Below, in pieces: positions 16,953 through 60,493 of a stretch of 64,000 bases of DNA. The notes below the pieces were generated by a model. The model was given only the letters and a program-made list of their open reading frames with translations. It did no database searches and was not told the origin of the DNA. The position numbers and the translations under genes are program-made. Every line of letters starts with the position of its first letter. Position 1 is the first letter of the stretch. Origin of the DNA: an uncultured Candidatus Saccharibacteria bacterium (GTDB taxonomy: Bacteria; Patescibacteriota; Minisyncoccia; Phycocordibacterales; UBA918); assembly GCA_964402035.1 (NCBI GenBank), contig CAYOAM010000003.1, positions 86,480 through 150,479 on the forward strand, written 5' to 3'.

Positions 16953-16961
16953 CAAGATCAG

Positions 16962-24988: not shown

Positions 24989-25391
24989 GGGGATGATCGG
25001 CTTAGACGGTTAGTGAGTATGTATGTGTGCAGTGTGAGAGCCTCTCGAATCTCTCTAAAAAATCGAGAAAATTCACGTGCTAAAACTGCTGTGAAATCTC
25101 CATACTTTAGCGGTATGGAGCTCGCCTACGCCTAAGCGTTTACGCTTTTCGCGTCGCGACGCGGACATGTCTGACACCCACTACGGCGTGTTCGTGTCAT
25201 ATTAGTTGGGTTATAAGGTACTACGTCGTTTCAGTGCACCTTGAATCAAAGAAACTCGGCACATAGTGATTTCGCTTACTTCAAACACTATGGACTTAAA
25301 TCTTCTTCGGAGGAATGAAAGTATCCTAGACACCGTAGATGCACATACATCCACTTCCTCGGACGGGGGTTCGACTCCTCCCATCTCCACA
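24989..25391 (+). ncRNA. ssrA: tmRNA (SsrA)
   Basis: 5' GGGGATGATCGGCTTAGACGG and 3' GGACGGGGGTTCGACTCCTCCCATCTCCACA match the tmRNA tRNA-like domain. Acceptor GGGGATG/CATCTCC has a G3:U70 pair and discriminator A. Internal frame GCT AAA ACT GCT GTG ... GAG CTC GCC TAC GCC TAA is tag-like. Directly downstream of smpB. Confidence 0.75.
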
Positions 25392-25402
25392 GATAACGCA
25401 AT

Positions 25403-36046: not shown

Positions 36047-36427
36047 TTACATCATTTTTACGTCAATCGAAACTCCAGAGGGCAACGAGAGGTTCGTGAG
36101 AGCCTCAATCACCTTTGGAGAAGGAGCCACAATGTCAATCACACGCTTATGCACTCGCATTTCGAATTGTTCTCGCGCATCTTTAAATACGAATGAGGCA
36201 CGATTGACCGTGTACTTCTTGATTTCCGTTGGTAGTGGTATCGGACCGACAACAGTAGCATCAAAGCGGAGTGCAGTATCCATGATCTGCTTTATTGAAG
36301 CATCAAGAATCTTGTGCTCGTACGCACGCACACGGATGCGCAGCTTCTGAATTTCAGCCGCTGCGACTGCTGCACGTTTCGTCGGTCGCTTTTTTGCTTC
36401 CGTTTTATCTGCTTTTGCTGTCGCCAT
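36047..36427 (-). CDS. rpsJ: Ribosomal protein uS10 with Lys/Ala-rich N-terminal extension
   Basis: C-terminal 100 aa QKLRIRVRAYEHKILDASIKQI...PIPLPTEIKKYTVNRASFVFKDAREQFEMRVHKRVIDI matches the S10 core. Confidence 0.9.
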   Translation of the reverse strand: MATAKADKTEAKKRPTKRAAVAAAEIQKLRIRVRAYEHKILDASIKQIMDTALRFDATVVGPIPLPTEIKKYTVNRASFVFKDAREQFEMRVHKRVIDIVAPSPKVIEALTNLSLPSGVSIDVKMM

Positions 36428-36446: not shown

Positions 36447-37640
36447 TTAGGCTACGATCTTCGTCACAACACCAGCTCCCACCGTCTTGCCTCCTTCGCG
36501 GATGGCAAAGCGCTGCTGCTCTTCGAGCGCAACTGGCGCTACGAGCTTCACTTTGAAAGTGACAGTGTCTCCTGGCATAACCATTTCGACTCCCTCTTTC
36601 AAGGTCACATCTCCGGTCACGTCAGTCGTGCGGATGTAGAACTGTGGCTTGTATCCAGAGAAAAATGGTGTGTGGCGACCTCCTTCATCCTTAGAAAGGA
36701 CGTACACTTCCGCTTCAAATTCGGTGTGTGGATTTACTGAACCCTTTGCTGCAAGCACCTGTCCACGATGGACATCATCCTTGGCTGTACCGCGGAGCAA
36801 AATACCCGCATTGTCTCCCGCCATAGCTGAATCAAGTGACTTGTTGAACATTTCAATACCGGTAACTGCTGTCTTTGTTGTTGGCTTGATACCCACAATC
36901 TCAACTTCAGTACCAACCTTGAGCTGTCCGCGCTCTACGCGTCCAGTGACCACCGTACCTCGTCCTTCAATTGAGAAAATGTCCTCAATTGGCATAAGGA
37001 ATGGCTTATCAGTATCACGAACGGGCATTGGGAAATAGGTATCCATGGCATCAACGAGCTCGAGAACCTTGGCACCCCATGGGCTAGAAGGATCTTCGAG
37101 AGCCTTGAGTCCAGAACCTTTGATGATTGGTACGTTCTTTCCATCAAAACCATGCTTATCCAAAAGCTCACGGAGCTCCTCTTCGACGAGCATAATCATC
37201 TCCTCATCATCAACCATGTCGCACTTGTTGAGGAATACGATAATCTTTGGTACTCCCACCTGGCGAGCCAAAAGTACGTGTTCCTTTGTTTGAGGCATCG
37301 CTCCGTCAGTCGCAGCAACCACAAGTACCGCGCCGTCCATTTGGGCTGCTCCCGTGATCATGTTCTTGATATAGTCTGCGTGACCCGGCGCATCGATGTG
37401 TGCGTAGTGACGATTTGGTGTCTCATACTCTGAGTGAGAAAGAGAAATCGTAATACCACGAGCCTTTTCTTCTGGCGCCTTATCAATATCGTCAACACCC
37501 TTTACCGATGCTGAGTATCCACCCCCCTTCTTGTTGAGCACGCTCAAAATCGCCGCAGTGAGCGTCGTTTTTCCGTGGTCAACGTGTCCGATCGTGCCCA
37601 CATTGATGTGTGGCTTTGATCGATTAAATGCTTCAGCCAT
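36447..37640 (-). CDS. tuf: Elongation factor Tu
   Basis: [25 protein letters not shown] and full-length EF-Tu conservation. Confidence 0.95.
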
Positions 37641-37892
37641 AATAATCTTAGATTAATACGTTTATAATGCTGCTGAAATGGTCCGTTGTAGAGGCGCGAG
37701 AAGTGCCCTATGACCAACCACTTCGACGTCTTCCTCTTAAATTTTCAAAAAACAAGGGTTGGGGAATAGAAATACCCAACACGAGCGAAAAAAAGAGCAA
37801 GGTGCAGTGCCGCCCATAGTACAGGAATCACCCCGAAGCGTCAAGAAATAATAAAGCCCCGAGGAGCGATGCTCAAAGGGGCTGTCAACACG

Positions 37893-37935
37893 TTTACAAA
37901 AAACTGCCGAGCTCCATGATGCTTCGGCAGTTTCT
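37893..37935 (-). terminator. Terminator-like hairpin after paralog 1
   Basis: Minus-strand hairpin CUGCCGAAGCAUCAUGGAGCUCGGCAG followed by UUUUUUG. Confidence 0.45.
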
Positions 37936-37954
37936 TGTTTCGATGTTACGGTGA

Positions 37955-38449
37955 TTATACAGCTGGAGTCGTTGTCGGAGTCGTAGGATTTACGAGTACA
38001 CACCCTGCGGTAATCTGTGCCCCTGAAAAACTCTGAGTCGGACCTGCGCCGGTATTGTAACTAAACGATTGTACGGAACTTGGCATGGTCGTTATGATTT
38101 GCCCGCCACCAGGAAATGTACAGACATAATGCGCACCAGTCGGACGCTGGATAACGCGGCGGGTCCCGGCGGCGACTGCGGCATCCTGCCCATCCGGCGT
38201 TTCTGCATCGACATATGACAAACTATCTTCATACACCATTTCAGCATCATCATAGACACCTTCATCAACATATGCGACATCATCTTCATACAGTGCACTC
38301 TCTGCAACCATAGACTTGAGTTGTTGTGCCTGCGTTGATAGCACGGACACACTACCACCCGTCGCAATAACTTGTCCAAGTGAAAAAGTGCTGATGGCAA
38401 ACGCTGCAATCGTGAGAACAGTTACTGGCATATTGTACTTTTCATCCAT
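37955..38449 (-). CDS. Small secreted/membrane-anchored protein, paralog 1 (with acidic Tyr-rich insertion)
   Basis: MDEKYNMPVTVLTIAAFAISTFSLGQVI... It shares the N-terminal signal-anchor and the C-terminal two-Cys domain VCTFPGGGQIITTMPSSVQSFSYNTGAGPTQSF...GC with 38611..38949 and 39114..39446. Start at internal Met. Confidence 0.55.
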   Translation of the reverse strand: MDEKYNMPVTVLTIAAFAISTFSLGQVIATGGSVSVLSTQAQQLKSMVAESALYEDDVAYVDEGVYDDAEMVYEDSLSYVDAETPDGQDAAVAAGTRRVIQRPTGAHYVCTFPGGGQIITTMPSSVQSFSYNTGAGPTQSFSGAQITAGCVLVNPTTPTTTPAV

Positions 38450-38552
38450 GTAAATTCTTTTGAGATCTGATAACACTACTACATAAAAACAATAGCATGC
38501 GACATACCCACGAACAATCGATGTCGTGCACAAGTAGCGATCACAACCAGTG

Positions 38553-38585
38553 TACGAAAAATCCGCATGGTGGCGGATTTTCATG
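38553..38585 (-). terminator. Terminator after paralog 2
   Basis: AAAATCCGC...GCGGATTTT hairpin. Confidence 0.5.
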
Positions 38586-38610
38586 TGCACATTGTGAAGC
38601 TAGTTTCTGC

Positions 38611-38949
38611 TTAGTAAGGAACGCAGGTTGGAGCAATTTGACCTCCATTGAACGTTTCTGTTGGACCGCTTCCCGTATTGTAGCTCACTGTCTGTACTGC
38701 AGTTGGATGTGACGTAATTATAGTCATTTGTCCAATTTGACATTTGAACAGACCGGCTCCTGGTCGAGCTATTGAACTTCCTAAAATTGTCCTTCGTGCA
38801 ACTGCAGCATCTTGAGATATTGATTCCTGTGTTGCTGAAAGCACCTGGACACTTCCATTTACACCGATCACTTGACCGAGGGAAAAAGCGCTCACACCAA
38901 ATGCGACAACAGCGAGAATTGCAACCGATAGACTATACTTCTGATCCAT
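38611..38949 (-). CDS. Small secreted protein, paralog 2
   Basis: MDQKYSLSVAILAVVAFGVSAFSLGQVIGVNGSVQVLSATQESISQDAAVA...KCQIGQMTIITSHPTAVQTVSYNTGSGPTETF...CVPY. Confidence 0.55.
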   Translation of the reverse strand: MDQKYSLSVAILAVVAFGVSAFSLGQVIGVNGSVQVLSATQESISQDAAVARRTILGSSIARPGAGLFKCQIGQMTIITSHPTAVQTVSYNTGSGPTETFNGGQIAPTCVPY

Positions 38950-39062
38950 ATGTTTAAATAAGAGAACTAATAAGTCCACTACACATAAAAACAATAGCAT
39001 GGGTCTAGACCTGCAACAATTGGGCATAGTGCATAGGTAGGAAATGTAAAAATTATTGAAGT

Positions 39063-39094
39063 ATAAAAAATCCGCCTAATGGCGGATTTTTTAT
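39063..39094 (-). terminator. Terminator after paralog 3
   Basis: AAAATCCGCC-TAAT-GGCGGATTTT, near-identical to the 38553 hairpin. Confidence 0.5.
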
Positions 39095-39113
39095 ACAGAC
39101 CTTTTGTCTAGAC

Positions 39114-39446
39114 TTAGATGGCTACGCAGGTCGGCGTCACTTGGCTTCCTGTGAAAGTCTGTGTCGCTCCACTTCCTGTATTGTAGCTCACGGTCTGTAC
39201 TGCAGTTGGATGTGACGTAACAATCGTCATCTGCCCTACTGTACATCGATAAAAACCAGCATTTGCGGGTGGTACAAAAACAGCACGCTGACGTGCAACA
39301 GCGGCATCTTGTGATATTGATTCTTGTGTTGCTGAAAGCACCTGGACGCTTCCGTTGACACCGATCACCTGACCGAGTGAAAACGTACTGACCCCAAATG
39401 CGACAACAGCGAGAATTGCAACGGATAGACTATACTTCTGATCCAT
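39114..39446 (-). CDS. Small secreted protein, paralog 3
   Basis: First 52 aa are 51/52 identical to paralog 2; divergent middle; conserved C-terminal RCTVGQMTIVTSHPTAVQTVSYNTGSGATQTF...CVAI. Confidence 0.55.
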   Translation of the reverse strand: MDQKYSLSVAILAVVAFGVSTFSLGQVIGVNGSVQVLSATQESISQDAAVARQRAVFVPPANAGFYRCTVGQMTIVTSHPTAVQTVSYNTGSGATQTFTGSQVTPTCVAI

Positions 39447-39540
39447 ATGTTTAAATAAGAACTAATAAGTCCACTACACATAAAAACAATAGCATGGGTT
39501 ACCTTGTGTATCCATCGGGTATGGTGCATAACTTCGAACG

Positions 39541-39582
39541 AAAAAGCCCGCGGAGACAAATGTCTCCGCGGGCTTTTTCTAC
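39541..39582. terminator. Terminator after fusA (bidirectional hairpin)
   Basis: AGCCCGCGGAGACA-AA-TGTCTCCGCGGGCT with T-runs on both sides. Confidence 0.65.
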
Positions 39583-39600: not shown

Positions 39601-41748
39601 TTACGCGCGCGCCGCCTTAATCTCTGCTGCTACGTTACCAGGCACAACCTCGTAGTGGTCAAACTCCATAGTCATCGACGCACGCCCTTCAGTCATTGAT
39701 CGGAGAGTGGTCGTATACCCGAACATCTCTGAAAGTGGTACTTTCGCTGTGATGACGCGCACCATATCGCGGTCATCCATACTCTCGATCATTCCACGCT
39801 TACTTGAGATATTTCCCGTAATGTCACCCATGAACTGTTCAGGTGTTGTTACTTCAATCTTCATAATCGGCTCCAGAATCACTGGATCAGCCTTTTCTGC
39901 CGCTTCCTTAAAGGCGTGAATACCCGCAAGACGGAACGCAATTTCACTTGAGTCCACATCGTGATAGCTACCATCGTAGAGCTCAACTGAGACATCTTCC
40001 ATCTTGTATCCCGCAACAAAACCGCGTTCCATTGCCTCCTTAACCCCCTTTTGTACTGCAGGGATAAATTCTCCGGGGATGGCACCTCCCTTGATAGCAT
40101 TAACAAACTCAAAGTGATCTTCGCGGTGTATGTTCTTTTGGAGTTTTGCTCCCTCTTCAAGCGGTTGCATGGGGCGAATACGAATCTTCACGTGACCATA
40201 CTGACCCTTTCCACCTGACTGCTTTACATACTTATGTTCTGCTTCGGCTGCGCGACGGATCGTCTCACGATACGCAACCTGTGGCTTCCCTGTATCTGCC
40301 GTCACTCCAAACTCTCGTTTCATGCGATCAACCAAGATCTCAAGGTGAAGTTCACCCATCCCTGAAATAATGGTTTCCATTGTTTCAGGATCCGTTGACA
40401 CACGGAAGGTTGGATCTTCATCAGAAAGCTTCTTAAGCGCCATACCCATTTTTTCCTGGTCATTCTTGGTCTTTGGTTCAATACGCATCGCAACCACCGG
40501 CTCAGGAAATACAATCTGCTCAAGTACGATTGGTTTGGTTTCGTCACAGAGTGTGTGTGATGTACGCGTATCTTTGAGTCCCACTGCAGCAGCAATCTCT
40601 CCAGCAAACACCTCTTCAATCTCTTCACGTTTATCAGCCTGGAGTCGCACGATACGTCCCAAGCGCTCTCGTGAACCAGTCGTAGAGTTATAAATATAAC
40701 TTCCAGCTTTCACGACACCCGAATAGACACGGAAGAATGTAAGTTGTCCCACAAATGGGTCAGTTTGAAGCTTAAACGCCAACGCACAGAATGGCTCGCT
40801 ATCGAGCGGCTTACGAATCTCTTCGGCTTCAGTGTTTGGATTCGTACCCTTAACCGGCGCAAGCTCTGCTGGAGAAGGAAGGAAATCAACCACAGCATCG
40901 AGGACGAGTTGCACACCCTTGTTCTTGAGCGCAGAACCCGTCATGACGGGGAAAATCATATTTCCAATAACTGCTTTTCGAAGTGTTGCACGAATCTGAT
41001 CGTTTGTTGGTTCGTTTCCTTCGAGGTATGCCGTCATCAACGCATCATCATGCTCGACAATCTTTTCAATCATCTCACCTCGAGCCTTTTCAGCCTCAGC
41101 TTTAAGTTCATCTGGGATATCATACTCAATAACTTGCATACCCATCTCTCCTTCAAACTTGAACGCCTTCATCTTGATAAGGTCAATAACTCCCGCAAAA
41201 TCACCCTCAGCTCCAATCGGAAGCTGAATACGTACAGCCTTCTTTGAAAGACGCTTGAGAATACTCTCGTATGATCGTTCAAATGATGCTCCCGTGCGAT
41301 CCATTTTGTTGATGAAACAGATACGAGGTACTTTCGCCTCATCCGCATAGCGCCAGTTGGTCTCACTCTGCGGCTCCACACCCGCAACTCCATCAAAAAC
41401 GACGATAGCGCCATCGAGTACGCGCATCGAACGCTTTACCTCAGCCGTAAAGTCAATGTGACCAGGAGTATCGATGATGTTGAAGGTAAACTTCTTCGCC
41501 ATATCGTTGCGGTCTGTTTCCTCTGACTTTGTCCAGTTGCAGGAAATAGCCGCCGCCGTAATCGTGATACCACGCTCACGCTCTTGTTCCATCCAGTCAG
41601 TCACAGTCGCGCCATCGTGCACTTCCCCGATTTTGTGGGACATACCCGTATAAAAGAGCACACGCTCAGATGTTGTGGTCTTGCCCGCGTCAATGTGGGC
41701 GATGATGCCGAAGTTACGTACTTTTTCTAGAGGAAATGCTCGAGCCAT
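39601..41748 (-). CDS. fusA: Elongation factor G
   Basis: [23 protein letters not shown] and full five-domain EF-G conservation; 715 aa. Confidence 0.95.
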
Positions 41749-41888: not shown

Positions 41889-42902
41889 ATGCTCCGATAT
41901 AACACATTTCTGATACTCCTAAGCATTCTTCTATTACCCACGACAGGCTTTGCCGAAGAAATCAATGCTGGCTTCGTGCAGGGACTATGGTACTCGGCTC
42001 GCAACGTATTTGTTGATACACCAGTCCGTATATACGTGGCAGTACGCAATAACAGTGAAAAAGATCTCTCAGGAACCGTTGTGTTTTCTGACAATGGGGC
42101 ACGGGTTGGCACCTTGAGCGTGAATGCGCTCCCTGGCCGCATCGTTGAAGCATGGGCTGACTGGAAACCGCTCTATGGGAATCACAAAATTGTTGCGACG
42201 TTTATTGATACGCGAATACTAAACGTCGGCACTACGTCTGAGCGCATCGACGTTGAAAGCACCCTTGCTGAAGATACTATTTTTGTTGACTATGACACCG
42301 ACAACGACGGGTCCGGGAACACGACTGACACGGATGATGACAATGACACCGTATCGGATGAGGATGAGAAGAAACAGCAGAGCGATCCTTTAGTTCCCAA
42401 TCATAAAAAAGAGGTCCTGACAGAAGCGGTGCAAACTCCTACAAACAGCACTTCGACGGAAGAAGAGGCTCCTATAGTACCAGCCGAGCAGACCCAACGC
42501 CTACCCCAAGGACTTGAACGCTATTTTGCCGACAGCGGAAGAATCGACTCCGTTCTGAAACAAACGACGAATAAGATCGAGCAAACAAAGAGCGCAATCG
42601 ACGAATATCGTACCAAGAGGTCTCACTCAAGCGCGAGCACCGGCTCCTCAATCGGGTCAAGCACAATAACAAATACGAGCCAAACAGATGATGGTACTCA
42701 AAAAAGTGGAACGGGAATCTTTGCAATGATGATCGATGGCCTCAGCAGTATTGTGTCAGGCGCCTATACCCTTATCCTCTGGCTACTATCACATCTTTTT
42801 GCAAATCCAATAGTTGTGCAGGTTCTACTACTGTTTCTGATCCCATATGTTTTGGTTAAAATAGCACGAAGAATGTCGCGTCGCCCTGATGGGTTTACAT
42901 AA
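41889..42902 (+). CDS. Secreted protein with CARDB-like beta-sandwich domain, acidic low-complexity region and C-terminal TM anchor
   Basis: Signal peptide MLRYNTFLILLSILLLPTTGFA. VRIYVAVRNNSEKDLSGTVVFSDNGARVGT resembles CARDB. Then DYDTDNDGSGNTTDTDDDNDTVSDEDE, and a C-terminal hydrophobic helix. Confidence 0.45.
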   Translation: MLRYNTFLILLSILLLPTTGFAEEINAGFVQGLWYSARNVFVDTPVRIYVAVRNNSEKDLSGTVVFSDNGARVGTLSVNALPGRIVEAWADWKPLYGNHKIVATFIDTRILNVGTTSERIDVESTLAEDTIFVDYDTDNDGSGNTTDTDDDNDTVSDEDEKKQQSDPLVPNHKKEVLTEAVQTPTNSTSTEEEAPIVPAEQTQRLPQGLERYFADSGRIDSVLKQTTNKIEQTKSAIDEYRTKRSHSSASTGSSIGSSTITNTSQTDDGTQKSGTGIFAMMIDGLSSIVSGAYTLILWLLSHLFANPIVVQVLLLFLIPYVLVKIARRMSRRPDGFT

Positions 42903-42904
42903 AA

Positions 42905-42945
42905 AACCACTATCATGTACGTACATGATAGTGGTTCACGTTTTT
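42905..42945. terminator. Bidirectional terminator with perfect 32-bp palindrome
   Basis: AACCACTATCATGTAC|GTACATGATAGTGGTT followed by CACGTTTTT, between convergent genes. Confidence 0.65.
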
Positions 42946-42956
42946 AGAGCTACACG

Positions 42957-43382
42957 CTACGACTGTATAAAAATTACAGCTTCTAGGTGTGTATTTCCGC
43001 CCTTAAGGCTCTGAACTACAAGGCGAAGTCGAGTAAATCCCTCTGCCGATTTCTCAGGCAACTCTTCAAACTTCACTTTTACGACACCGCGACTACACCA
43101 CACAGGTCTGCGGATCCGCGAACTCTCAATACCGCAAAAGAGCTTCCCTGGATACAACGCGCACACAGGACCAGCTGCTGCGGTGTTGAGAATCAATGCT
43201 CCCGGCACTATGGCTCTTTGGTTTATTTCTATGTCATGGAGCTCATAGTTTGTGTCACCAACATTGAGCATGTGATGTCGAATTTGCTCTCTAGAGAACT
43301 CCAAAATGATCGCCTGTGGCTCTTCAGGAATCTTCCTGATAGTCGCATGCCAATCTTCTCGTCCCGCAGAAATAGTATCCAC
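42957..43382 (-). CDS. Hotdog-fold protein resembling FabZ/FabA dehydratase (possible non-canonical active site)
   Basis: IVPGALILNTAAAGPVCAL and FCGIESSRIRRPVWCSRGVVKVKFEEL align with FabZ [20 protein letters not shown] and [27 protein letters not shown]. The position of the FabZ catalytic Glu is Asn here. Confidence 0.4.
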   Translation of the reverse strand: MDTISAGREDWHATIRKIPEEPQAIILEFSREQIRHHMLNVGDTNYELHDIEINQRAIVPGALILNTAAAGPVCALYPGKLFCGIESSRIRRPVWCSRGVVKVKFEELPEKSAEGFTRLRLVVQSLKGGNTHLEAVIFIQS

Positions 43383-43490
43383 AATATCCTCCCTATGCGT
43401 TCGTACATGAATGACAAATTCATTCCATAGCGCATTAAATACTCTTATCTTGGAGAAGTCAAAAAAGCCAACCTTTCGGTTGGCATAATA

Positions 43491-44048
43491 TTATTTCGAG
43501 ATAGCTAGGACGCCACCCGAGTAGGTCATTGTTCCTCTAGGAACCCATTTATTACTCTCCTCACCGCCACCGACGTTTTTGTATAGATTGGCAGTACCAG
43601 AAAACAGATAGAATGGGAAGCCCTGAAGAGGAGCTACGTGGCTATACTCACCATCTTTGTCACTACCACCAAATACCCCTTCAAACCTCCCCGCTTTGCT
43701 GGCACACACAAGTGCATGCCAAAGAAAACTATTTACATCCTCACTCAGAGGATAGGTATGCTGGTACGCACACTGCCACAATCTCTGTTGTGGCAAGTCA
43801 CCCCTCTTTACAAGATAGATGCTCACAAAGCCTCCGCCCTGGTAACACTTCCACCGTAGGCGCAACCGCCGATTACCTGTCTTTGAATATGAATCATGCA
43901 CACTTTCATTTCGTGTGATGAACGATAGTCGAACGCCGTTGCCCCCAAGGGATTTCTGCACATCATCAATCTGCTTTATTGACTGACAGAAGAATGCTTC
44001 CATTTCCTCCGCAGTGGGAACCTTGCTCATTGTCCCAGGATCAAACAT
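43491..44048 (-). CDS. Hypothetical protein (Gly/Tyr/Trp-rich), no family recognised
   Basis: 185 aa from the Met with AAGGAG SD (MFDPGTMSKVPTAEEMEAFF...). Lies between rpsG and the FabZ-like gene. Confidence 0.4.
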   Translation of the reverse strand: MFDPGTMSKVPTAEEMEAFFCQSIKQIDDVQKSLGGNGVRLSFITRNESVHDSYSKTGNRRLRLRWKCYQGGGFVSIYLVKRGDLPQQRLWQCAYQHTYPLSEDVNSFLWHALVCASKAGRFEGVFGGSDKDGEYSHVAPLQGFPFYLFSGTANLYKNVGGGEESNKWVPRGTMTYSGGVLAISK

Positions 44049-44104
44049 GACATATACTCCTTTTTCCAAACCCACTGCACACTACCTTATTTCACCCAAA
44101 ACAG

Positions 44105-44145
44105 CAAAAGCTCCCTTACGGGAGCTTTTGCTGTTTTATTTTTTT
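44105..44145. terminator. Terminator after rpsG
   Basis: AAAAGCTCCC-TTAC-GGGAGCTTTT followed by GCTGTTTTATTTTTTT. Confidence 0.6.
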
Positions 44146-44149
44146 ACTT

Positions 44150-44623
44150 CTACCAGGCAAAGTGCGCGAATGCGCGGTTCGCTTCGGCCATGCGGTGCGT
44201 ATCTTCCTTCTTCTTGACCGCTACCCCCTCTTCCTTTGCAGCTGACATAAGTTCTGCGGCGAGTGCTTCTGCCATTGGCTTTCCCTTGTGACCGCGAGCT
44301 GCAGCGATAATCCATCGGAGCGCAAGAGCAGTGCGGCGTTCTGGACGAACCTCTCGAGGAACCTGGTAGTTGGCACCTCCCACACGTCGTGAGCGGACTT
44401 CCATTTGCGGACCTGCGTTACGAATTGCCGTTTCCAAAATTTCAACCGGTGCTCCACCTCCCTCTTTTGCATCCTTGATAATCGCAAATGCGCTATGGAC
44501 GATAATGCGGGCAGTCGCCTTTTGTCCACGCTGCATGACATAGTTGATAAGGCGCGCAACATACACCGAGTTAAAAGTCTCGTCTGCCTTCAAGGCTGGT
44601 CGTCGTTTAATAGGTCGTCGCAT
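44150..44623 (-). CDS. rpsG: Ribosomal protein uS7
   Basis: 157 aa with INYVMQRGQKATARIIV and GANYQVPREVRPERR motifs. Confidence 0.9.
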   Translation of the reverse strand: MRRPIKRRPALKADETFNSVYVARLINYVMQRGQKATARIIVHSAFAIIKDAKEGGGAPVEILETAIRNAGPQMEVRSRRVGGANYQVPREVRPERRTALALRWIIAAARGHKGKPMAEALAAELMSAAKEEGVAVKKKEDTHRMAEANRAFAHFAW

Positions 44624-44649
44624 AAATAAATTGTATTGAAATTAGTGGT

Positions 44650-49218: not shown

Positions 49219-50739
49219 TCAGACATTAGAAGTCTTATGCTGATCAACGTGTAGTTCTTCGCGCATGTACAGATATCGAATTCCCGCTGTTAGCAATATA
49301 TATGCTGCCACGACAAACCACATTGAAAAACGCTCCACGGAAATTGACGCATATGGAACGCGAGAACCCCATTCGGCTATAGCAAGAATATACGCAAGCA
49401 GGAGATATGCAGGATACGCGAAGAGGAGTGCGCTCATGCCAAAGACCATACCCGCTAACCCTATAAAAAATGTGACGAGCATCGTCAGCGGTACAAAAAG
49501 TAGTACAAACACATTTACAAAAAGTGCGACGAGAGAAACAGAACCAATTGCATAGAGCAAAAATGGGAGTACGAATATTTGTGTTGCAATAGTTGCTGTC
49601 ACATATTCGCGAACACCAAGCCGCGAGGGGACATATCCGAGTTTCCGTTCAACAATCGGTGCACAAAAAATAAGTCCCAGCGTTGCGAGAAACGAAAGTT
49701 GGAAGCCGGGATCAAACGCCAATACGTAGGGGTTCCACAACAGCATAATTCCCGCAGTGCACATAAGTGCGCGCAAGACGGCGTACGTTCTGCCAGTAGC
49801 GCGCGCCAAGAGTACGAGAAGTGCCATCACTGATGCACGTACCACCGTCGCGGAGAGACCCACGAGTAGGGCAAAAATAAAAATAGCGCATGCGCCAATA
49901 AAAAGTCGCACACGTATTCGTGGAATGAACGCAAGGAGTCGCATGATTGATTCTGCAACAATAGTGAGGTTGTATCCTGAAAGTACAATGATGTGGATAA
50001 TGCCAACGGTGCGGAACCACATTTCAACTTCTGGGCCAAGTGCACGTTTTTCTCCCAGCAACAACCCTGTCGCGAGTCCCGCATGTGGTTCAGGGAGTAA
50101 CAACTCAATACTTTCAATAAAACGATGCTTCAACACAAAGAGTGGGCGGAGTATGTAGGGCCCGCTTGTGTGCTCGATCATGGAAACGTGAGCAAACGAA
50201 ATAGTGTGTGTCACATCCTGCGCCCGTAAATATTCTTCATAATAAAATGTTCGGCCAAGATCTGTTTCAAAAGCAGACGGACGCTCGAGTCGTCCTTCAA
50301 CACGCACACGATCACCATACATGAGATCGTTTCGCAGATTCGCTTGTGCACGTACAACGGTGTCGATGCTCGTGCTTCCAACATGATCAACTGCTACATA
50401 GAGAGCAATCCCATTGTCTCGCTTCTCTACATCACGAACTACCACGCCCTCGATCGCAATAGTCGAAGACTCATAGGGTGCCACGGCGGAAACCGTACGC
50501 TCATATGCTTGCTCTACAAACGCAAAGCGACACACACCGACTATAAAAAAAAGTATTCCTGCACATGATGCTGCTGCAGCACGCATGGTGAGTAGTTGAC
50601 TAAAACAAAGAAGAGCAATGACGAGAGCGATCGTGGCACAGACCATACCCACCGTGACAACATCAAAAAAGAAAAACGAGCGGAATACTATTCCGCTCGC
50701 AAGTCCCACCACACCCCCATAGAGTAGTGCTCCTGACAT
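49219..50739 (-). CDS. comEC: ComEC/Rec2 competence membrane channel (DUF4131 + competence domain, no MBL domain)
   Basis: LATGLLLGEKRALGPEVEMWFRTVGIIHIIVLSGYNLTIV is the competence-domain signature; about 10 TM helices. Confidence 0.8.
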   Translation of the reverse strand: MSGALLYGGVVGLASGIVFRSFFFFDVVTVGMVCATIALVIALLCFSQLLTMRAAAASCAGILFFIVGVCRFAFVEQAYERTVSAVAPYESSTIAIEGVVVRDVEKRDNGIALYVAVDHVGSTSIDTVVRAQANLRNDLMYGDRVRVEGRLERPSAFETDLGRTFYYEEYLRAQDVTHTISFAHVSMIEHTSGPYILRPLFVLKHRFIESIELLLPEPHAGLATGLLLGEKRALGPEVEMWFRTVGIIHIIVLSGYNLTIVAESIMRLLAFIPRIRVRLFIGACAIFIFALLVGLSATVVRASVMALLVLLARATGRTYAVLRALMCTAGIMLLWNPYVLAFDPGFQLSFLATLGLIFCAPIVERKLGYVPSRLGVREYVTATIATQIFVLPFLLYAIGSVSLVALFVNVFVLLFVPLTMLVTFFIGLAGMVFGMSALLFAYPAYLLLAYILAIAEWGSRVPYASISVERFSMWFVVAAYILLTAGIRYLYMREELHVDQHKTSNV

Positions 50740-50747
50740 GAAGACAC

Positions 50748-51170
50748 TTACGATTTTCGATCCATCGCTTCATTTGCAAGTCGATCTGCATGCGTATTTT
50801 GTTCACGACGCACATGAGAAAACGTGAGATGTGGAAATGCTGCGACGCGCAGATTGTGAATCTCTATAAACTGAGGAACCAGTGATGGTTCTTTGATCTG
50901 GTACACGCTAGAGAGTTGTCGTTGGACCAGCTCACTGTCCATTTTCACTTCTACTGCCATGTGCTTGGTGTCTTTGCCAAAACGTCGTTTAAGTTCCGTG
51001 AGCACAAGAATGACCGCAGCATACTCAGCAAAATTATTTGTCGCATTTCCCAAAAACTGTGAACCTTCAAAAATAACTTTGTCATGACTATCAAAGGCAA
51101 CACAACCTGCTCCTGCAGGTCCTGGGTTGCCACGAGCTCCTCCATCGGTGTAACACACGACTTTCTTCAT
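50748..51170 (-). CDS. rnhA: Ribonuclease HI
   Basis: MKKVVCYTDGGARGNPGPAGAG...NNFAEYAAVILVL...HADRLANEA contains the DEDD catalytic residues. Start at internal Met. Confidence 0.85.
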   Translation of the reverse strand: MKKVVCYTDGGARGNPGPAGAGCVAFDSHDKVIFEGSQFLGNATNNFAEYAAVILVLTELKRRFGKDTKHMAVEVKMDSELVQRQLSSVYQIKEPSLVPQFIEIHNLRVAAFPHLTFSHVRREQNTHADRLANEAMDRKS

Positions 51171-51217
51171 GAGGGCATTATATACCTCAAAAGACACATC
51201 CGTCCAAGCACCCTCTT

Positions 51218-52957
51218 CTACCCTTGAGCAGGTGAAACCTCAACAAGACGTAGTCGTACCTCACGTCGACCACCAAAAAAACTCTCCTCAACATGCGCAA
51301 TTACGTCTACAAACTCATCCGCCACCAGTGGCGCTTTATACGCATCGGCTTGCTTAAAAAAACCTATAGCAGTAATACTCCGTATGCCTTGTTTAAATAT
51401 CACCTTTACGTGCCCTTTTTCTTTTCCAAACATTGTTACTTGATATGGCTTAACATTTCTAAACAGAAATAGTGGTTTGTGATTTCCAACACCAAACGGT
51501 GCAAAGCGTGCGAGAGTACGCGCAAGAGCATCGCCAACGTGATCCAACGTGAGCTCCGCATCAACGACTATTGGTTTCGTCGCACGTGCTGCCTGTGTTT
51601 CGTCGCCCACCAAAGTTGCGTGCGCTTGAAGTAGTGCATTACTCAGTGTGTGTATACGATCTTCATGCACAGAAAATCCACCAGACATGTGATGTCCACC
51701 GTATTCCAAAAACGACTCTCGCGCCTCATGCATGAGATCGACAACACTCACACCACCACCCGAGCGACACGAACCTTTCAAAATATTTCGTCCATCGCGA
51801 CCCCAGATAAAAACGGGTCGAGCAAATGACTCCGCAAGTGTGTTTGCGGCGAGACCAACAAGTGCGGGACGCCACGAAGGATCACCGACAACTAACACTG
51901 ATCCTATCTGCTCAAGTTCCGCTACTTTTTTATTAATTTCTTTTACCATCGAACCAACGACTCCTTTGCGTTCATTATTGATATGATCAAGATGCTGTGC
52001 AAACATTCCAGCTTCGCCCGGAGTAGCTGCTGTCAACAGTTTAAACGCATCTTCGGGTGAATCCATTCGTGATGCTGCATTGATGCGAGGCGCAATCATA
52101 AAACCAACATCATCTTCGGTTATCGATGAGGCCTGCATCTTCATGGTACGAAATAAATGTTGCAAACCGAGCCTGCGATTTTTTTTCATCACAAGCAATC
52201 CATAATGTGCAAACAATCGGTTCTCGTCAGTGAGTGGCACCATATCAGCAATCGTTGCGATACCGACCATATCAAGTAGCCATTTTTCTTGACCTTGTGT
52301 TAGTGAGAAATTCCCACGTGCAATCAGAGCCAAAACAAGTTTGTATGCAACACCTGACCCACAGAGACCTGAAAATGGGTAAGCGCTATCTACACGCTTA
52401 GGATTTATGACAGCAATCGCAGGCGGCAACAAGGGCCCTGGTTCATGATGATCAGTCACAATAGCATCAATACCAATTTTTTGAGCATGCATCACTTGAT
52501 CCACATCAGTAATACCACAATCGACAGTAATCATCAGAGTCACCCCATCACGCTGCAAACTATCAATTGCCACTGTATTGAGACCATACCCTTCATGGTG
52601 GCGGTGTGGAATATAATTTTGAACATGCGGATACGCAATAAGCTTAAAAAAATCGTGAAGCAAAACCCCACCAGGAATACCATCACAATCATAATCACTA
52701 TAAATCGCTATCTTCTCACCTTGTGCAATAGCACCCAAAATACGCATTACAGCTACTTCCATATCAGGAAGTAGAAATGGGTCATGGAGACCGCACTCAT
52801 ACGATCGATCAAAAAAAATCTGTGCATCCTTGGCAGTCACAATGCCGCGACCGAACAGCAGTGTCTGTGTCAATGAATCAAAGTCAACGAGTGCATCACG
52901 CAGGATTGGCGATGGCTCTTCACGCAATTGATAATGGGCAGACGACATGATTCGCAC
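51218..52957 (-). CDS. recJ: Single-stranded-DNA-specific exonuclease RecJ
   Basis: DHH motifs IYSDYDCDGI, ITVDCG and VTDHHEPG; DHHA1 domain GGGH; C-terminal OB region. Confidence 0.85.
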   Translation of the reverse strand: MRIMSSAHYQLREEPSPILRDALVDFDSLTQTLLFGRGIVTAKDAQIFFDRSYECGLHDPFLLPDMEVAVMRILGAIAQGEKIAIYSDYDCDGIPGGVLLHDFFKLIAYPHVQNYIPHRHHEGYGLNTVAIDSLQRDGVTLMITVDCGITDVDQVMHAQKIGIDAIVTDHHEPGPLLPPAIAVINPKRVDSAYPFSGLCGSGVAYKLVLALIARGNFSLTQGQEKWLLDMVGIATIADMVPLTDENRLFAHYGLLVMKKNRRLGLQHLFRTMKMQASSITEDDVGFMIAPRINAASRMDSPEDAFKLLTAATPGEAGMFAQHLDHINNERKGVVGSMVKEINKKVAELEQIGSVLVVGDPSWRPALVGLAANTLAESFARPVFIWGRDGRNILKGSCRSGGGVSVVDLMHEARESFLEYGGHHMSGGFSVHEDRIHTLSNALLQAHATLVGDETQAARATKPIVVDAELTLDHVGDALARTLARFAPFGVGNHKPLFLFRNVKPYQVTMFGKEKGHVKVIFKQGIRSITAIGFFKQADAYKAPLVADEFVDVIAHVEESFFGGRREVRLRLVEVSPAQG

Positions 52958-52983
52958 ATGGTACCATAGTAAGAAATATACGT

Positions 52984-53394
52984 ATGGACGACCTTTTTTT
53001 AAAAATTATCAGTGGCGACATACCGAGCGCTAAAGTCTACGAGGACGCGCAGGTCGTCGCTTTTTTAGACATCCGTCCCTGCAACAAAGGACACACACTG
53101 GTCATACCACGTACACACTATCGCAATATTTTTGATATGGACAAGGAAGCGTTTGGCACACTCGCAGCCGCGACGCACACGGTTGCTCTTGCGGTACAAA
53201 AAGCTACCGATGCCGATGGTATCAATATTGTCATCAACAATGAGAAAGCAGCGGGCCAAGAAATATTTCACGCGCACTTCCATATAATTCCACGCTTTAA
53301 CGACGATGGTGTGTTTGCGCCGCCTGCACACACGACCTATGCGCCCGGTGAAATAGAAACAATGGCAGAGAAAATAAAAGCAATGCTCTCGTAA
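52984..53394 (+). CDS. HIT-family (histidine triad) nucleotide hydrolase
   Basis: HAHFHIIPR histidine triad. Confidence 0.8.
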   Translation: MDDLFLKIISGDIPSAKVYEDAQVVAFLDIRPCNKGHTLVIPRTHYRNIFDMDKEAFGTLAAATHTVALAVQKATDADGINIVINNEKAAGQEIFHAHFHIIPRFNDDGVFAPPAHTTYAPGEIETMAEKIKAMLS

Positions 53395-53437
53395 CCCCTA
53401 GCGGGCGCCCCCGGGCGAAACACCCTCATATCTTAGA

Positions 53438-54604
53438 CTAGCTCGTCTGCGCAGTACGTAGTGCTTCAATGCCAGGCAGCGTTCCTTTTTCTAGAAACGT
53501 AAGCATTGCTCCTCCAGCCGTTGAGACAAATGTAAACCGGTCAGTCAATGCGCTATCTTGGATTGACGCGACCGTATCTCCGCCACCAACAATCGAAATA
53601 CCTGGAGCATGTGCGACAGCTTGCGCAAACTGTTTAGTGCCCGCATCAAAGCCACGCTCATAATCACCCAAAGGACCATTCCATAATAGTGTCTCAACAA
53701 AACGCAGCTCTTCGGTCAGCATCGCTATGGTTTCCGGTCCAGCGTCCAAGATCGCATCATCGTGAGCAACTTCAGAAAGCTTACGCATCATAGGTCCTCC
53801 CGGCGTTAGTACCGCAACATCAATAGGCAACAAGAGTTTTGGATGCTGATACAGCGATGTTGTCTTGATATCAATGTCTGAGATTAACGATTTTCCGATA
53901 GATAAACCGTTTGCGACAAAAAAATTGTTCGCGAGCGCCCCACCAACAAAAACACGATCATACCGCTCGATCAAAAGCTCCACTAAGGGGAGTTTTGTCT
54001 CAAATTTTGCTCCCCCAAGTACAAAGAGCGAAGGTGATTTTGGTGTACGCGCCAATGACAAATGCTCCAATTCGTCCATAAAAAGCAGGCCCGCGTACGA
54101 CGGCAAAAATTTTGGTATTCCCACAATTGATGCATGCTCACGATGCGCGACAGAAAAAGCATCATTAACATATATATCGCCGTACGAAGCAAGCGTTTGT
54201 GCAAACGCAGGATCATTGTCTTTTTCACCCGGGTGCAACCGCAGATTCTCGAGCAGCAACAACTCCCCTTCTTTGAGCGACGCAATCTTTGCATCAACCT
54301 CGGGACCAACTGATGTTCCTACCCACGCGACAGGTATATAGGTATTCAAGACTTCGCATACCCCCTTCAGAGAATCGTCCGAAGACCCATCTGCCCGTGA
54401 ACTATGAGCGATAATAACGACTTTTGCTCCTGCAGCCCGTAACAGCTGCAATGTCGGTAAGGCTTTTTTTATACGAAACGTGTGTGTGACTGCGCCCTCT
54501 GCAGAAAGTGGCACATCAAGTCCTGCACGGACGAGCACACGCTTGCCGCGCAAATCTGTTCGTTCACTTATTTTATGAAGCAATGGTATGAAATCAACGT
54601 TCAT
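53438..54604 (-). CDS. pgk: Phosphoglycerate kinase
   Basis: VRAGLDVP and GGGDT motifs, full-length PGK conservation. Confidence 0.9.
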   Translation of the reverse strand: MNVDFIPLLHKISERTDLRGKRVLVRAGLDVPLSAEGAVTHTFRIKKALPTLQLLRAAGAKVVIIAHSSRADGSSDDSLKGVCEVLNTYIPVAWVGTSVGPEVDAKIASLKEGELLLLENLRLHPGEKDNDPAFAQTLASYGDIYVNDAFSVAHREHASIVGIPKFLPSYAGLLFMDELEHLSLARTPKSPSLFVLGGAKFETKLPLVELLIERYDRVFVGGALANNFFVANGLSIGKSLISDIDIKTTSLYQHPKLLLPIDVAVLTPGGPMMRKLSEVAHDDAILDAGPETIAMLTEELRFVETLLWNGPLGDYERGFDAGTKQFAQAVAHAPGISIVGGGDTVASIQDSALTDRFTFVSTAGGAMLTFLEKGTLPGIEALRTAQTS

Positions 54605-55373
54605 AGGTTGTCGTAATAATAGTACTAAAATCTAAAGGACGTAAGCTGGCACCTCCTACGAGAAAACCTTGACTGCCGCCTCCCGCTACGAGCGCTGCCA
54701 CATTCTTTTGATCAACTGACCCACCATAGAGAATGCGCACACGCTCTGCAGCACCTCGACCATAGAGATCCGTCAAAATCTTCCGGATAAAGAGCACCAT
54801 CTCATGTGCATCGTCGGGTGTTGCGGCTCGCGCAGTCGCGCTCGCTGTACTAATCGCCCACACCGGTTCATACGCAACTACCAGATGTGCGAGTTTAGTT
54901 GCGACTACGCCGCGCAGCGCAGCGCGCAGTTGCTCTTCGACAACACCAAAATATTTCCCTGAGGTGTCACGTTCGCGCTCTCCCACACAGACGACTGCAG
55001 TAAGTCCTGCTTTTAGGACAAGCGCCGTCTTTTTTTCAATTTCAAGATCTGTCTCTCCACGTGCACGACGTTCTGAATGCCCAATAATGACATGGGAAAC
55101 TCCAAAGCCCTGCAACATACCGACAGACACTTCCCCCGTCAATGCTCCCATAACTTCACTTGAAACATTTTGTGCTCCGAGCAATAGCGGACTTTTTCCT
55201 ATGTTTTTTTGCAAATCGGCCAGGTACACAAACGGTGGAGCAATAACAACCTCAGTTTCAGACACCTTTTTTAGATGCTTCTTAATCGCCAAAAAAAGCA
55301 CCTTCGCTTCTCCTAAAGCACGAGGATTCATTTTCCAATTGGCAATGATGAGCATTCCTCGATGTGTGCGCAT
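54594..55373 (-). CDS. tpiA: Triosephosphate isomerase
   Basis: IANWKMN, AYEPVWAIST and IGHSERR motifs; 11-nt overlap with pgk. Confidence 0.9.
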   Translation of the reverse strand: MRTHRGMLIIANWKMNPRALGEAKVLFLAIKKHLKKVSETEVVIAPPFVYLADLQKNIGKSPLLLGAQNVSSEVMGALTGEVSVGMLQGFGVSHVIIGHSERRARGETDLEIEKKTALVLKAGLTAVVCVGERERDTSGKYFGVVEEQLRAALRGVVATKLAHLVVAYEPVWAISTASATARAATPDDAHEMVLFIRKILTDLYGRGAAERVRILYGGSVDQKNVAALVAGGGSQGFLVGGASLRPLDFSTIITTTYER

Positions 55374-55433
55374 AGATAGTGTATCGGTATCGCAATTGTA
55401 CCATAGAGCAGACCTCGTAACTGCAAAGCAAAG

Positions 55434-56852
55434 CTAGTTCATCTCGCGCCACTCGATAAAGCGGTAGGTATCCGACGTATACGGTGTTAGAGGTGGCGGA
55501 CTCGACACCAGTGAACGATCATACGAATTGAAACGTGTAGTATATCCTGATGTCTGAACACCACCCGATACCCACTTTGTACCCTCACGTCCATTGCTGA
55601 CTATCGTACCCTGCACAGTGAGTGAGTTTCTAAATACGTATGGGTCAAGTGAATTGGGGCTCGTATTTGCAGCGGTGTAGTGGTTTCGTCCAAATCTACC
55701 GTTTTGTGCGATAAAAATACCTTTGATTGTCATATTATTCGGTGAATCAAGACCAATGAGTATAGAGTCCTCCGCGATCGCCAATATGCCCACAGACCCG
55801 TCGTTTGTGGTGTAGGTGATGTTATCGGGAATAATGATGCTTGGGTTCACACCAACAGTAATGACATTTGCGGCGGCGACCGTCACTTTTTTACTAATTA
55901 CCCCCTCAAGCCATACCTTATCTTCAACATACACGAGACTGCAACTTGGTGGTATGGGGTAGTTAGCAACAAATACTTCAGTGCGTATGACGTGTCTCTC
56001 AAATTGCCATCCTGCTTCAGTTGTATATCCTTGAAAATTTTCGGTATTGGTCACGCGATACACATCAAATGTGTCATTGTTCTTGAAAATAAGGTGATAC
56101 CCGTAGTTACCTGATGGGGCGATGTATCGACCGCCTGCAGAAACGGCTTTGGTTTTCATGTTCGTAAGATCAACCGATAAGCCCGCAAAACTAATAGGTG
56201 GCGATGGAAAACTCCAGAGCGCACTGTTAGGCCCCGCACCGAAAACACCATCCTCGGTGGAGTTTGGAGAGCAGCCAAATGTTGCCGTACATAGCCAATC
56301 CTCTAGGCCACTTGAAACACTTGAATTATTGGTACCATCCATACGTATACCTCCATTTGAATGATACGGACCAATAATGGTGCGATCAGCACCAGCCCAC
56401 ACATTTGAATTGATAATGTATGAGAACTCCGTCACCGTTGGGCGCGCGTATTTACCATAGACAGTACGCGGTACCGATGGGGCACTTGTCGAGACACCCG
56501 TTGAGAGAATGTCGATCGATGCAATGTCACCGCACACATTATTGCCGGTAATGTCAAGCGAGTATGTACCAATGAGACCCCCTTCTGGATCAAAATAATT
56601 GTGCACATAGGGTCCCGTTGTTGCTGTACCATTCGTCACATCATTGGGATAATGCGAAAGATACCATTTATAATAATCGAGACCAGCTTCAGCGACCGCT
56701 AGCGCTCGCTCTTTTTCAACTTTTGTATTTTCTGAACGATGTTCTGTAATAATAAATCCTAACAACGCACTCACCATGACAAAAAACACTGAGCCAAATA
56801 CCAACACGATAACAATCAGATAGCCACGTGAATATAATGATGTTGGATGCAT
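55434..56852 (-). CDS. Large pilus-associated protein with PilX-like N-terminus (minor pilin / tip protein candidate)
   Basis: SRGYLIVIVLVFGSVFFVMVSALLGFI N-terminal hydrophobic segment, then a 430-aa Gly/Asn/Thr-rich domain. Last gene of the pilB2-pilC2 cluster. Confidence 0.45.
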   Translation of the reverse strand: MHPTSLYSRGYLIVIVLVFGSVFFVMVSALLGFIITEHRSENTKVEKERALAVAEAGLDYYKWYLSHYPNDVTNGTATTGPYVHNYFDPEGGLIGTYSLDITGNNVCGDIASIDILSTGVSTSAPSVPRTVYGKYARPTVTEFSYIINSNVWAGADRTIIGPYHSNGGIRMDGTNNSSVSSGLEDWLCTATFGCSPNSTEDGVFGAGPNSALWSFPSPPISFAGLSVDLTNMKTKAVSAGGRYIAPSGNYGYHLIFKNNDTFDVYRVTNTENFQGYTTEAGWQFERHVIRTEVFVANYPIPPSCSLVYVEDKVWLEGVISKKVTVAAANVITVGVNPSIIIPDNITYTTNDGSVGILAIAEDSILIGLDSPNNMTIKGIFIAQNGRFGRNHYTAANTSPNSLDPYVFRNSLTVQGTIVSNGREGTKWVSGGVQTSGYTTRFNSYDRSLVSSPPPLTPYTSDTYRFIEWREMN

Positions 56853-56855
56853 ATA

Positions 56856-57476
56856 TTAAAATCTAGTTTTTAGATTGCGAGGTGCAGCGCTCGAGTTTAT
56901 TTTAAATTCACCAGGCGTCTGAATAGGGTTCACATTCACAATCATATTCACTTCAATATACCGTATATCGGTGATACTCGTCGTTGCAACTGCAGCACTC
57001 CCATTCTCAAGAAAATATAAAAACGTCGATGTGGCCTGTTCACCATTGCGAATATACTCCGAAATAGTGATGTGTTCATCAGGTGTCGTTGAACTATAAC
57101 CCACCGGTGTTCCTGTCGCATTATAAATATCCTTGTACAACGTGGTTGTGGCGAGATAGTAGCGAACATACTCGACGCTATTATCTCGATCAATATCACT
57201 ATAAAACGCAATCGTGCTGGTACCCATGAGAACCAACGGATACGTACCATCATCCCCGTAGGTCATTTCACGAAGATCGCGCGTAATCAGTGCCATACCC
57301 CGTCGTCCATTACTCACTTCATAGGTCTGCGCTATTGTGTATGCATTGGTTTTATATAAATAGTTAATCGAGGAAAAAATTGCAAGTATCGTGATCGTAA
57401 AGAGAGAGACGGTGACGACCACCTCAACAAGAGTGAAGCCGGTACGATGACTACGGTGTAAAAGAAACGTGCTCAT
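56856..57476 (-). CDS. Minor pilin / pseudopilin
   Basis: HRSHRTG/FTLVEVVVTVSLFTITILAIF prepilin motif; 206 aa. Confidence 0.7.
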   Translation of the reverse strand: MSTFLLHRSHRTGFTLVEVVVTVSLFTITILAIFSSINYLYKTNAYTIAQTYEVSNGRRGMALITRDLREMTYGDDGTYPLVLMGTSTIAFYSDIDRDNSVEYVRYYLATTTLYKDIYNATGTPVGYSSTTPDEHITISEYIRNGEQATSTFLYFLENGSAAVATTSITDIRYIEVNMIVNVNPIQTPGEFKINSSAAPRNLKTRF

Positions 57477-59227: not shown

Positions 59228-59240
59228 ATTAAACATATGG

Positions 59241-60470: not shown

Positions 60471-60493
60471 AAAAAGATATTTAGTAAATATGT

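Follow-up and report, generated by a model that had tools for sequence, protein, structure and literature searches.

Three tandem genes for putative signal-anchored surface proteins of a rare patescibacterial family lie in the fusA-tuf spacer

The 64,000-nt stretch of contig CAYOAM010000003.1 analyzed here (the window) carries a tandem array of three small genes between fusA and tuf, referred to as paralogs 1, 2, and 3, whose products are putative extracytoplasmic proteins. The upstream boundary of this island is fusA (39601-41748), which codes for the 715-amino-acid (aa) elongation factor EF-G (Pfam GTP_EFTU, EFG_III, EFG_IV, and EFG_C on record), and the downstream boundary is tuf (36447-37640), which codes for the 397-aa EF-Tu and has rpsJ (36047-36427) directly 3' of it; these genes, the paralogs, and all of the control elements described with them are on the minus strand. 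Following fusA are paralog 3 (110 aa, 39114-39446), paralog 2 (112 aa, 38611-38949), and paralog 1 (164 aa, 37955-38449), all of which begin with MD(Q/E)KY (MDQKY in paralogs 2 and 3). The interval contains only these genes and their control elements, and tblastn finds no fourth copy in the window. An initial annotation of this DNA had three same-strand genes of 165, 113, and 110 aa at the fusA-tuf junction, of which the number, the strand, and the smallest size are retained and the other two sizes are corrected to 164 and 112 aa. The GC content of the array (0.44 to 0.47, versus 0.47 to 0.50 in the flanks) has no clear anomaly that would signal horizontal transfer.

Each paralog has the sequence features of a self-contained unit of ~500 bp, with a promoter-like element, a gene, and a terminator, as first described, and since the repeat period is 495 to 509 nt, the duplicated unit comprises all three parts. 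The conserved upstream element is present at every copy, with an invariant 19-nt core, CATGCTATTGTTTTTATGT, that begins 50 to 52 nt before the ATG (39478-39496, 38983-39001, and 38481-38499 for paralogs 3, 2, and 1, respectively) and occurs exactly three times in the window, against an expectation of 0.05 matches when up to three mismatches are allowed. In paralogs 3 and 2 the core lies in a 42-nt block (39458-39499 and 38963-39004) that is 100% identical, and because the adjacent coding DNA has already diverged at synonymous sites (0.48), this block must be either constrained or homogenized; the flanks of the paralog 1 core have diverged. Within the 19-mer, TGC-TATTGT (TGCTATTGT in paralog 3) resembles an extended -10 box and probably acts as a promoter, followed by an AU-rich leader of ~40 nt. 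Three observations agree with this assignment. At 17 nt upstream of TGC-TATTGT the copies have TGGATA, TTGTTG, and TTGTTC; every copy also has T(A/G)TGCAC 26 nt ahead of the core; and, relative to coding sequence, the pattern TGnTAnnnT is overrepresented 5.8-fold in the 80 nt that precede long open reading frames (ORFs) of this genome.

Translation apparently begins at the MD(Q/E)KY codons, and the longer database gene calls for paralog 2 (129 aa) and paralog 1 (209 aa) start too far upstream; they are considered over-extended because the frame of the upstream ATG relative to the main ORF differs from copy to copy. The 19-mer itself does not code for protein: an upstream ORF or alternative start in it (ATGCTATTG...) was rejected on similar grounds, since no two copies share its frame relative to the main ORF and its peptide is not conserved past MLLFLC. 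Paralogs 2 and 3 are separated by a 2-nt indel that shifts the upstream ATG relative to the MDQKY codons. Leaderless transcripts driven by a -10 box adjoining the ATG were also rejected, with no TAnnnT in the last 15 nt. The leaders have no Shine-Dalgarno (SD) sequence, and although this absence was noted correctly at the outset, it is genome-wide and does not distinguish the paralogs, since an SD-like 4-mer precedes just 6 of the window's 54 long ORFs (near chance) and tuf, fusA, rpsJ, rpsG, and rpsL also lack one. Across these 54 ORFs, TGnTAnnnT boxes often end 0 to 30 nt before the ATG, a pattern that points to frequent use of very short or leaderless mRNAs in this genome.

Hairpins with U-tracts follow fusA and each of the paralogs. 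The fusA terminator (39540-39579) is a 19-bp perfect hairpin with a predicted folding energy of -36.2 kcal/mol (RNAfold), and those of paralog 3 (39061-39096; core AAAATCCGCC-ATTA-GGCGGATTTT, 16-bp arms), paralog 2 (38551-38581; AAAATCCGCCACCATGCGGATTTT, a direct and inverted repeat), and paralog 1 (37896-37938; an inverted repeat, CTGCCGA...TCGGCAG plus T6) have energies of -23.4, -15.5, and -25.0 kcal/mol, respectively. Every gene thus has its own terminator as proposed, but the AAAATCCGC...GCGGATTTT hairpin is shared only by paralogs 3 and 2, and that of paralog 1 is not of the AAAATCCGCC type. Upstream of tuf is a sigma-70-like promoter detected by promoter scan (TTGACG, 17 nt, TACTAT; 37816-37844), followed by a leader of ~175 nt, and relatives have comparable TTGAC-N17-TAnnnT sites upstream of tuf. 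With an intrinsic terminator closing fusA and a separate promoter serving tuf, the paralogs sit between two transcription units and not, as the initial annotation had it, inside the most highly expressed operon of the cell; these features, together with the terminator of each paralog, argue against cotranscription with fusA and tuf as a single str operon. In Saccharibacteria genetics, tuf has been used as a stand-alone promoter and terminator unit (PMC10633639).

The array is present in independent assemblies. Over the 12.3 kb that were compared, the window is identical to the 461.7-kb metagenomic contig ERZ3430527 NODE_4. A second sample yielded a contig of 7 kb with 99.885% identity and all three paralogs, and the assembly of a third sample holds the part from fusA to paralog 3; the assemblies from the source samples are ERZ3430525, ERZ3430527, and ERZ3430528. 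Between the two independently assembled populations there are 8 differences over 7 kb, with none in the array and none in fusA, and recovery of the same three-copy array excludes the collapsed or expanded repeats that had been a concern. All 8 differences between the window and the second-sample contig are within 2.3 kb (42389-44644), and four of them are third-codon-position changes in a gene for a 337-aa secreted protein.

The three genes code for protein and are under purifying selection. Over the whole gene, paralogs 2 and 3 differ with a synonymous divergence (dS) of 0.80 and a nonsynonymous divergence (dN) of 0.15, with a ratio (omega) of 0.19 (Nei-Gojobori), and this omega at this dS, together with the homologs in two other metagenomes described below, identifies the paralogs as real coding genes. 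Constraint is strongest in the N-terminal 45 codons (dS 0.48, dN 0.01, omega 0.02; 12 synonymous and 1 nonsynonymous changes; 44/45 residues identical), relaxed in the linker (omega 0.49; 9/20 identical in the middle region), and strong in the last 45 codons (omega 0.15; 32/45 identical). The description of the family as diversifying is therefore not sustained, with omega below 1 in every segment and the array identical in two sampled populations. The N-terminal identity of 51/52 reported for paralogs 2 and 3 is correct, and its attribution to recent duplication or gene conversion gives way mainly to strong purifying selection, although the 5' end may be partly homogenized, synonymous divergence being lower there (0.48) than in the remainder of the gene (dS ~1.1). 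Synonymous sites of paralog 1 are saturated against both other paralogs.

Searches by HMMER over 1.84 billion cluster representatives and by profile against 5.8 billion sequences yield, out of ~15 billion proteins overall, a family of five members: the three paralogs (P0001, P0002, and P0003), P0004 (117 aa, in GCA_043739445.1, contig JAYUEF010000083, and in SRA run SRR22198359), and P0005 (141 aa, in ERZ27296333). None of the five has a name in databases, and the family appears to be new to them, with its known members all from patescibacterial (Paceibacteria/Parcubacteria) metagenomes. Consistent with the early statement that no known family could be recognized, paralogs have no match above threshold in Pfam, NCBIfam, PHROGs, or PADLOC (the best sub-threshold match is DUF2066, at 17 bits versus a cutoff of 23), PDB sequence and fold searches likewise gave no known family, and no housekeeping family was matched above threshold. 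Profile matches to Fab heavy chains in the PDB (E ≥ 0.003), which span the VH-CH1 boundary, and weak matches to giant Ig-repeat proteins in the representative search were rejected as compositional or chance. The family profile gave pattern matches but no confirmed member among GTDB species genomes, JGI metagenomes, and IMG/VR contigs, and hmmsearch detected none when the 80 related fusA loci were translated in six frames. The C-terminal domain of paralog 1 is nearer to that of P0004 (26/49 identical) than to those of paralogs 2 and 3 (22 to 23/48), and because of this and of the synonymous saturation, the first duplication is judged to be old.

All five members share one architecture, which bears out the proposed N-terminal hydrophobic export or anchor segment and variable middle. 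The MDxKY start is followed by a hydrophobic segment of ~24 residues (approximately residues 6 to 29 in paralog 3), in which a 19-residue window has a mean Kyte-Doolittle hydropathy of 1.9 to 2.2, then by a conserved G-S-V-x-V-L-S-like stretch and a variable Gln/Ala/Ser-rich linker. No conserved -3/-1 small-residue signal-peptidase site is evident by eye across the five. The C-terminal domain of ~45 aa conforms to C-x(2,3)-G-x(8,9)-P-x2-V-x(3,4)-Y-N-x-G-...-T-...-G-...-C, and each protein has exactly two Cys, 39 to 40 residues apart (C68 and C107 in paralog 3, C70 and C109 in paralog 2, and C110 and C150 in paralog 1), in agreement with the fixed spacing noted originally; these probably form a disulfide. 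The acidic Tyr-rich insertion of paralog 1 (~40 residues; 38189-38314) is confirmed as a repeat, containing an internal 57-nt repeat, and is absent from the four other members in alignments; paralog 1 also has a Pro/Thr-rich tail. Net charge after residue 30 is -11 in paralog 1, +1 in each of paralogs 2 and 3, and +3 and +4 in P0004 and P0005. The suggested structure prediction was performed with AlphaFold2, run twice (full protein and domain alone) with the five-sequence alignment, and both runs predict the same five-strand topology for the C-terminal domain at moderate confidence (pLDDT, the predicted local distance difference test, ~70), the two Cys lying on the outermost strands of the sequence, i.e., one and five; confidence is low for the N-terminal part, which has a short helix at residues 7 to 19.

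The location of the array is ordinary for this clade. EF-G of the window is 60 to 81% identical to EF-G of 80 Patescibacteria genomes, which places the host among Paceibacteria (Parcubacteria) and Kaiserbacteria-like genomes, and the fusA loci of these 80 nearest species representatives (L006-L085) were surveyed with simple ORF calling. Both genes share a contig and strand in 46 loci, where the median distance from fusA to tuf is 1,676 nt, 4 gaps being below 200 nt, 39 above 500 nt, and 11 above 3 kb; in at least 7 further loci there is no tuf in the 7 kb downstream of fusA. By comparison, the rpsG-fusA gap has a median of 163 nt (62 loci, 20 above 500 nt) and the tuf-rpsJ gap a median of 24 nt (44 loci). 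The junction was initially taken to be conserved, but it is usually interrupted in these relatives, and the cargo is different in every surveyed genome, including large and small proteins with a signal or anchor at the N terminus, RelE/ParE-type toxin-antitoxin pairs, pyrimidine genes, and an ABC transporter. N-terminal hydrophobic segments are found in 35% of gap ORFs and 22% of flanking ORFs (P = 0.018), a modest enrichment. The fusA-tuf spacer is thus, in this sample of genomes, a clade-wide variable island. The island of one Kaiserbacteria genome (L018, 10831-14758) has its own tandem proteins with N-terminal transmembrane anchors (225, 421, 222, and 209 aa), of which at least two share motifs and which are of an unrelated family, and toxin-antitoxin pairs are present in the islands of L025 and L053. 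Nowhere in the literature searched is the fusA-tuf spacer of Patescibacteria described as a hot spot.

A second family member, P0004, is very probably also located just upstream of tuf. Its neighbors are a TrmB-like protein and a secreted PG_binding_1 protein, and the latter, downstream, is 47 to 59% identical to a gap protein of L024; the 110 nt after the PG_binding_1 gene align with the tuf promoter and leader of L024, and the P0004 contig ends before tuf. P0004 is assigned to this position because both its neighbor and the sequence that follows match the L024 gap, tuf promoter, and leader. The same contig (L004, 1-2286) also codes for a ParE/YafQ-type toxin with a small ORF upstream, and the TrmB/MarR-like protein (251 aa) lies directly upstream of P0004.

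The interpretation that we favor, with a probability of roughly 0.55, is that the paralogs are three tandem-duplicated, separately transcribed genes of a very rare patescibacterial family, coding for small extracytoplasmic proteins in a permissive fusA-tuf island. Each ~500-bp unit would be transcribed from its extended -10 promoter through the SD-less leader to its intrinsic terminator, and the product would be inserted by Sec/YidC with a 5-residue N terminus in the cytoplasm. The single transmembrane helix is probably retained as a signal anchor, a retained helix being favored over a cleaved leader because no other part of the protein is as strongly conserved (omega 0.02) and there is no conserved -3/-1 site. 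The variable linker, which in paralog 1 is lengthened by the acidic repeat into what is probably an extended stalk, would display the five-strand domain outside of the cell, with its first and last strands probably joined by the disulfide, and the ectodomain is a putative cell-surface binding or structural module. A role in interaction with a host or partner is possible. The family would have grown here through tandem duplication of the whole transcription unit, in a spacer that may tolerate insertions by virtue of the strong fusA terminator and the independent tuf promoter that bound it, and the array probably lies here because this spacer serves the whole clade as a permissive site for lineage-specific cargo.

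Several observations weigh against this interpretation. A sigma-70 scanner based on consensus sequences left the proposed promoters of the paralogs unflagged, and none of the four hairpins figured among the terminators that it reported. AlphaFold confidence is moderate (pLDDT of 56 for the full-length protein and 69 for the domain, from five sequences), and no fold or sequence relative offers a functional lead. The enrichment of exported proteins in the island is weak, and the context of P0005 shows no tuf.

Three other functions have been considered, all of them weaker than the signal-anchored surface-protein interpretation. It is improbable that the paralogs are pilin-like subunits of a filament or membrane-embedded oligomer, with the N-terminal helix in the core, the beta domain exposed, and the paralogs acting as major and minor or antigenically distinct subunits. 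Their architecture is like that of type IV pilins and pseudopilins, with a short polar N terminus, a best-conserved hydrophobic helix, a variable beta-rich domain, and a Cys-bounded C-terminal region as in the pilin D-region (the disulfide being predicted only); small and polar residues (S, G, and Q) at conserved helix positions suggest helix-helix packing, and the same window encodes PilB, PilC, and ComEC. However, the paralogs have no class III signal (G|F/M-x-x-x-E), that is, no prepilin-peptidase site, and no match to PF07963 at E ≤ 10, whereas the genuine pilins of the window (56856-57476 and 57473-59254) match it at ~1e-5. AlphaFold predicts only the short, low-confidence helix rather than a long alpha-1, and the pilus cluster is unlinked, more than 10 kb away.

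Mycoplasma Vlp, Vsp, and Vsa loci are tandem same-strand lipoprotein genes of reduced-genome, host-associated bacteria, each with a near-identical 5' noncoding region and export signal and a diverging exposed region with repeat expansions. A comparable variable-surface-antigen array, in which copies are switched or alternately expressed to vary the surface seen by hosts or phages, would account for the conserved 42-nt upstream block and signal anchor, the divergent linker and ectodomain, and the repeat expansion in one copy, in an organism that has a reduced genome and is probably host dependent (Patescibacteria; 461.7-kb contig); islands of relatives, e.g., L018, also hold tandem surface-protein paralogs. 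Such switching has a small chance of being correct, as there is no lipobox Cys (the only Cys are the two of the C-terminal domain), no long homopolymer or simple-sequence tract at the promoters, no invertible segment or recombinase nearby, and no sequence similarity to the Mycoplasma proteins; moreover, the array has just three copies and does not differ between the two sampled populations, and omega is below 1, with the ectodomain under purifying selection.

The bacteriocin-like activity that the initial annotation offered, alongside host or partner interaction, is doubtful in the extreme. In that case a Sec-dependent leader would be cleaved and a disulfide-stabilized C-terminal peptide would kill competitors, the copies differing in target spectrum, and the paralogs do resemble class II bacteriocin precursors in being small and exported, with a conserved Cys pair and tandem copies, each with a promoter-like element. 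But the alignment has no double-glycine leader and no YGNGV-type box, neither the 2-kb interval nor the surroundings of P0004 and P0005 hold an ABC transporter, a C39 peptidase, or an immunity ORF, and there is no bacteriocin match in PADLOC or Pfam. The mature parts are not cationic (-11 in paralog 1 and +1 in paralogs 2 and 3, with a family range of -11 to +4) and at 80 to 135 aa are larger than is typical, omega is below 1 throughout, and conservation is higher in the N-terminal segment than in the mature part, whereas a leader that is discarded would not usually be so constrained. There is next to no likelihood that the array is an assembly artefact, a noncoding repeat, or a set of spurious ORFs, even with nameless products and two of three genes called with wrong starts, given the omega of 0.19 at a dS of 0.80, the homologs in two other metagenomes that keep the start, transmembrane segment, and Cys spacing, and the identical three-copy structure in an independent assembly.

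Other features of the window include a second interruption of the str region, at the rpsG-fusA junction (41889-44048), which has three genes: two same-strand ORFs (185 and 141 aa) without Pfam matches and the opposite-strand gene for the 337-aa protein, which has an N-terminal signal, weak matches to Big_3_5 and TSP3, and a C-terminal hydrophobic anchor. Beyond tuf, rpsJ is followed by a pirin gene in place of rplC. In several relatives (19 leaders inspected), the tuf leader, which is at 37641-37815 (minus strand) in the window, opens with a promoter-proximal hairpin and a U-rich tract, e.g., AACGCATCTTGGCGTCGCTCTTTGG (L006, L007, L008, L013, and L062; L012, L017, L019, L021, and L023), and the closest relatives have a common motif, TTCTCGCGCC, ~60 to 80 nt before the tuf ATG. 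The tuf leader has no Rfam match and RNAalifold on 7 leaders gave no consensus structure and no predicted pairs; it may be an uncharacterized leader or attenuator for the tuf-rpsJ unit. An Rfam scan of the array region gave only terminator-hairpin noise.

A competence and type IV pilus cluster spans 49219-62242 (minus strand), with ComEC (49219-50739), two N_methyl pilin-like proteins (206 aa and 593 aa, the latter with CarboxypepD_reg and SpaA-like domains), PilC (T2SSF), and PilB (T2SSE), interspersed with genes for RNase H, RecJ, PGK, and TIM. A tRNA-Ile at 16879-16953 (plus strand) has the anticodon TAT (UAU); bacteria usually read AUA with a lysidine-modified CAU tRNA, and the UAU anticodon is uncommon. 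A tmRNA is identified by Rfam at 24989-25392 (plus strand; 84.8 bits) and is not reported by ARAGORN.

Multigene insertions between translation-machinery operons are described in other bacteria, for example, in Gammaproteobacteria (PMC6735719). Those are similar to the present case in that lineage-specific genes lie between otherwise contiguous ribosomal or translation blocks, but they differ in that the break here is within the classical str unit (fusA|tuf), affects 42 of 46 relatives (more than 200 nt), and has content that differs from genome to genome. A broader proposal, rather unlikely as a whole, is that the Paceibacteria fusA-tuf spacer is an actively used "display site" that acquires, duplicates, and exchanges surface genes beside the strongest housekeeping promoters, with the fusA terminator on one side and the tuf promoter and leader on the other as insulation, and that the two-Cys family has long resided there (in two or more genomes), acting in host or partner recognition as a counterpart of the mycoplasma variable surface-protein loci.

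The family itself, one more unannotated small exported protein from the candidate phyla radiation, is of a familiar kind and not surprising, but its definition by an MDxKY signal anchor and a C-x(39-40)-C beta domain is worthwhile, and two over-extended database gene calls are corrected. The more reusable result is that the classical fusA-tuf linkage is broken in ~90% of the Paceibacteria genomes sampled. If this is true clade-wide, it would provide a fixed genomic address, simple to locate, for surface and interaction genes of uncultivated episymbionts, would call for caution in synteny-based binning and annotation that assume an intact str operon, and would suggest a natural neutral site for genetic engineering.

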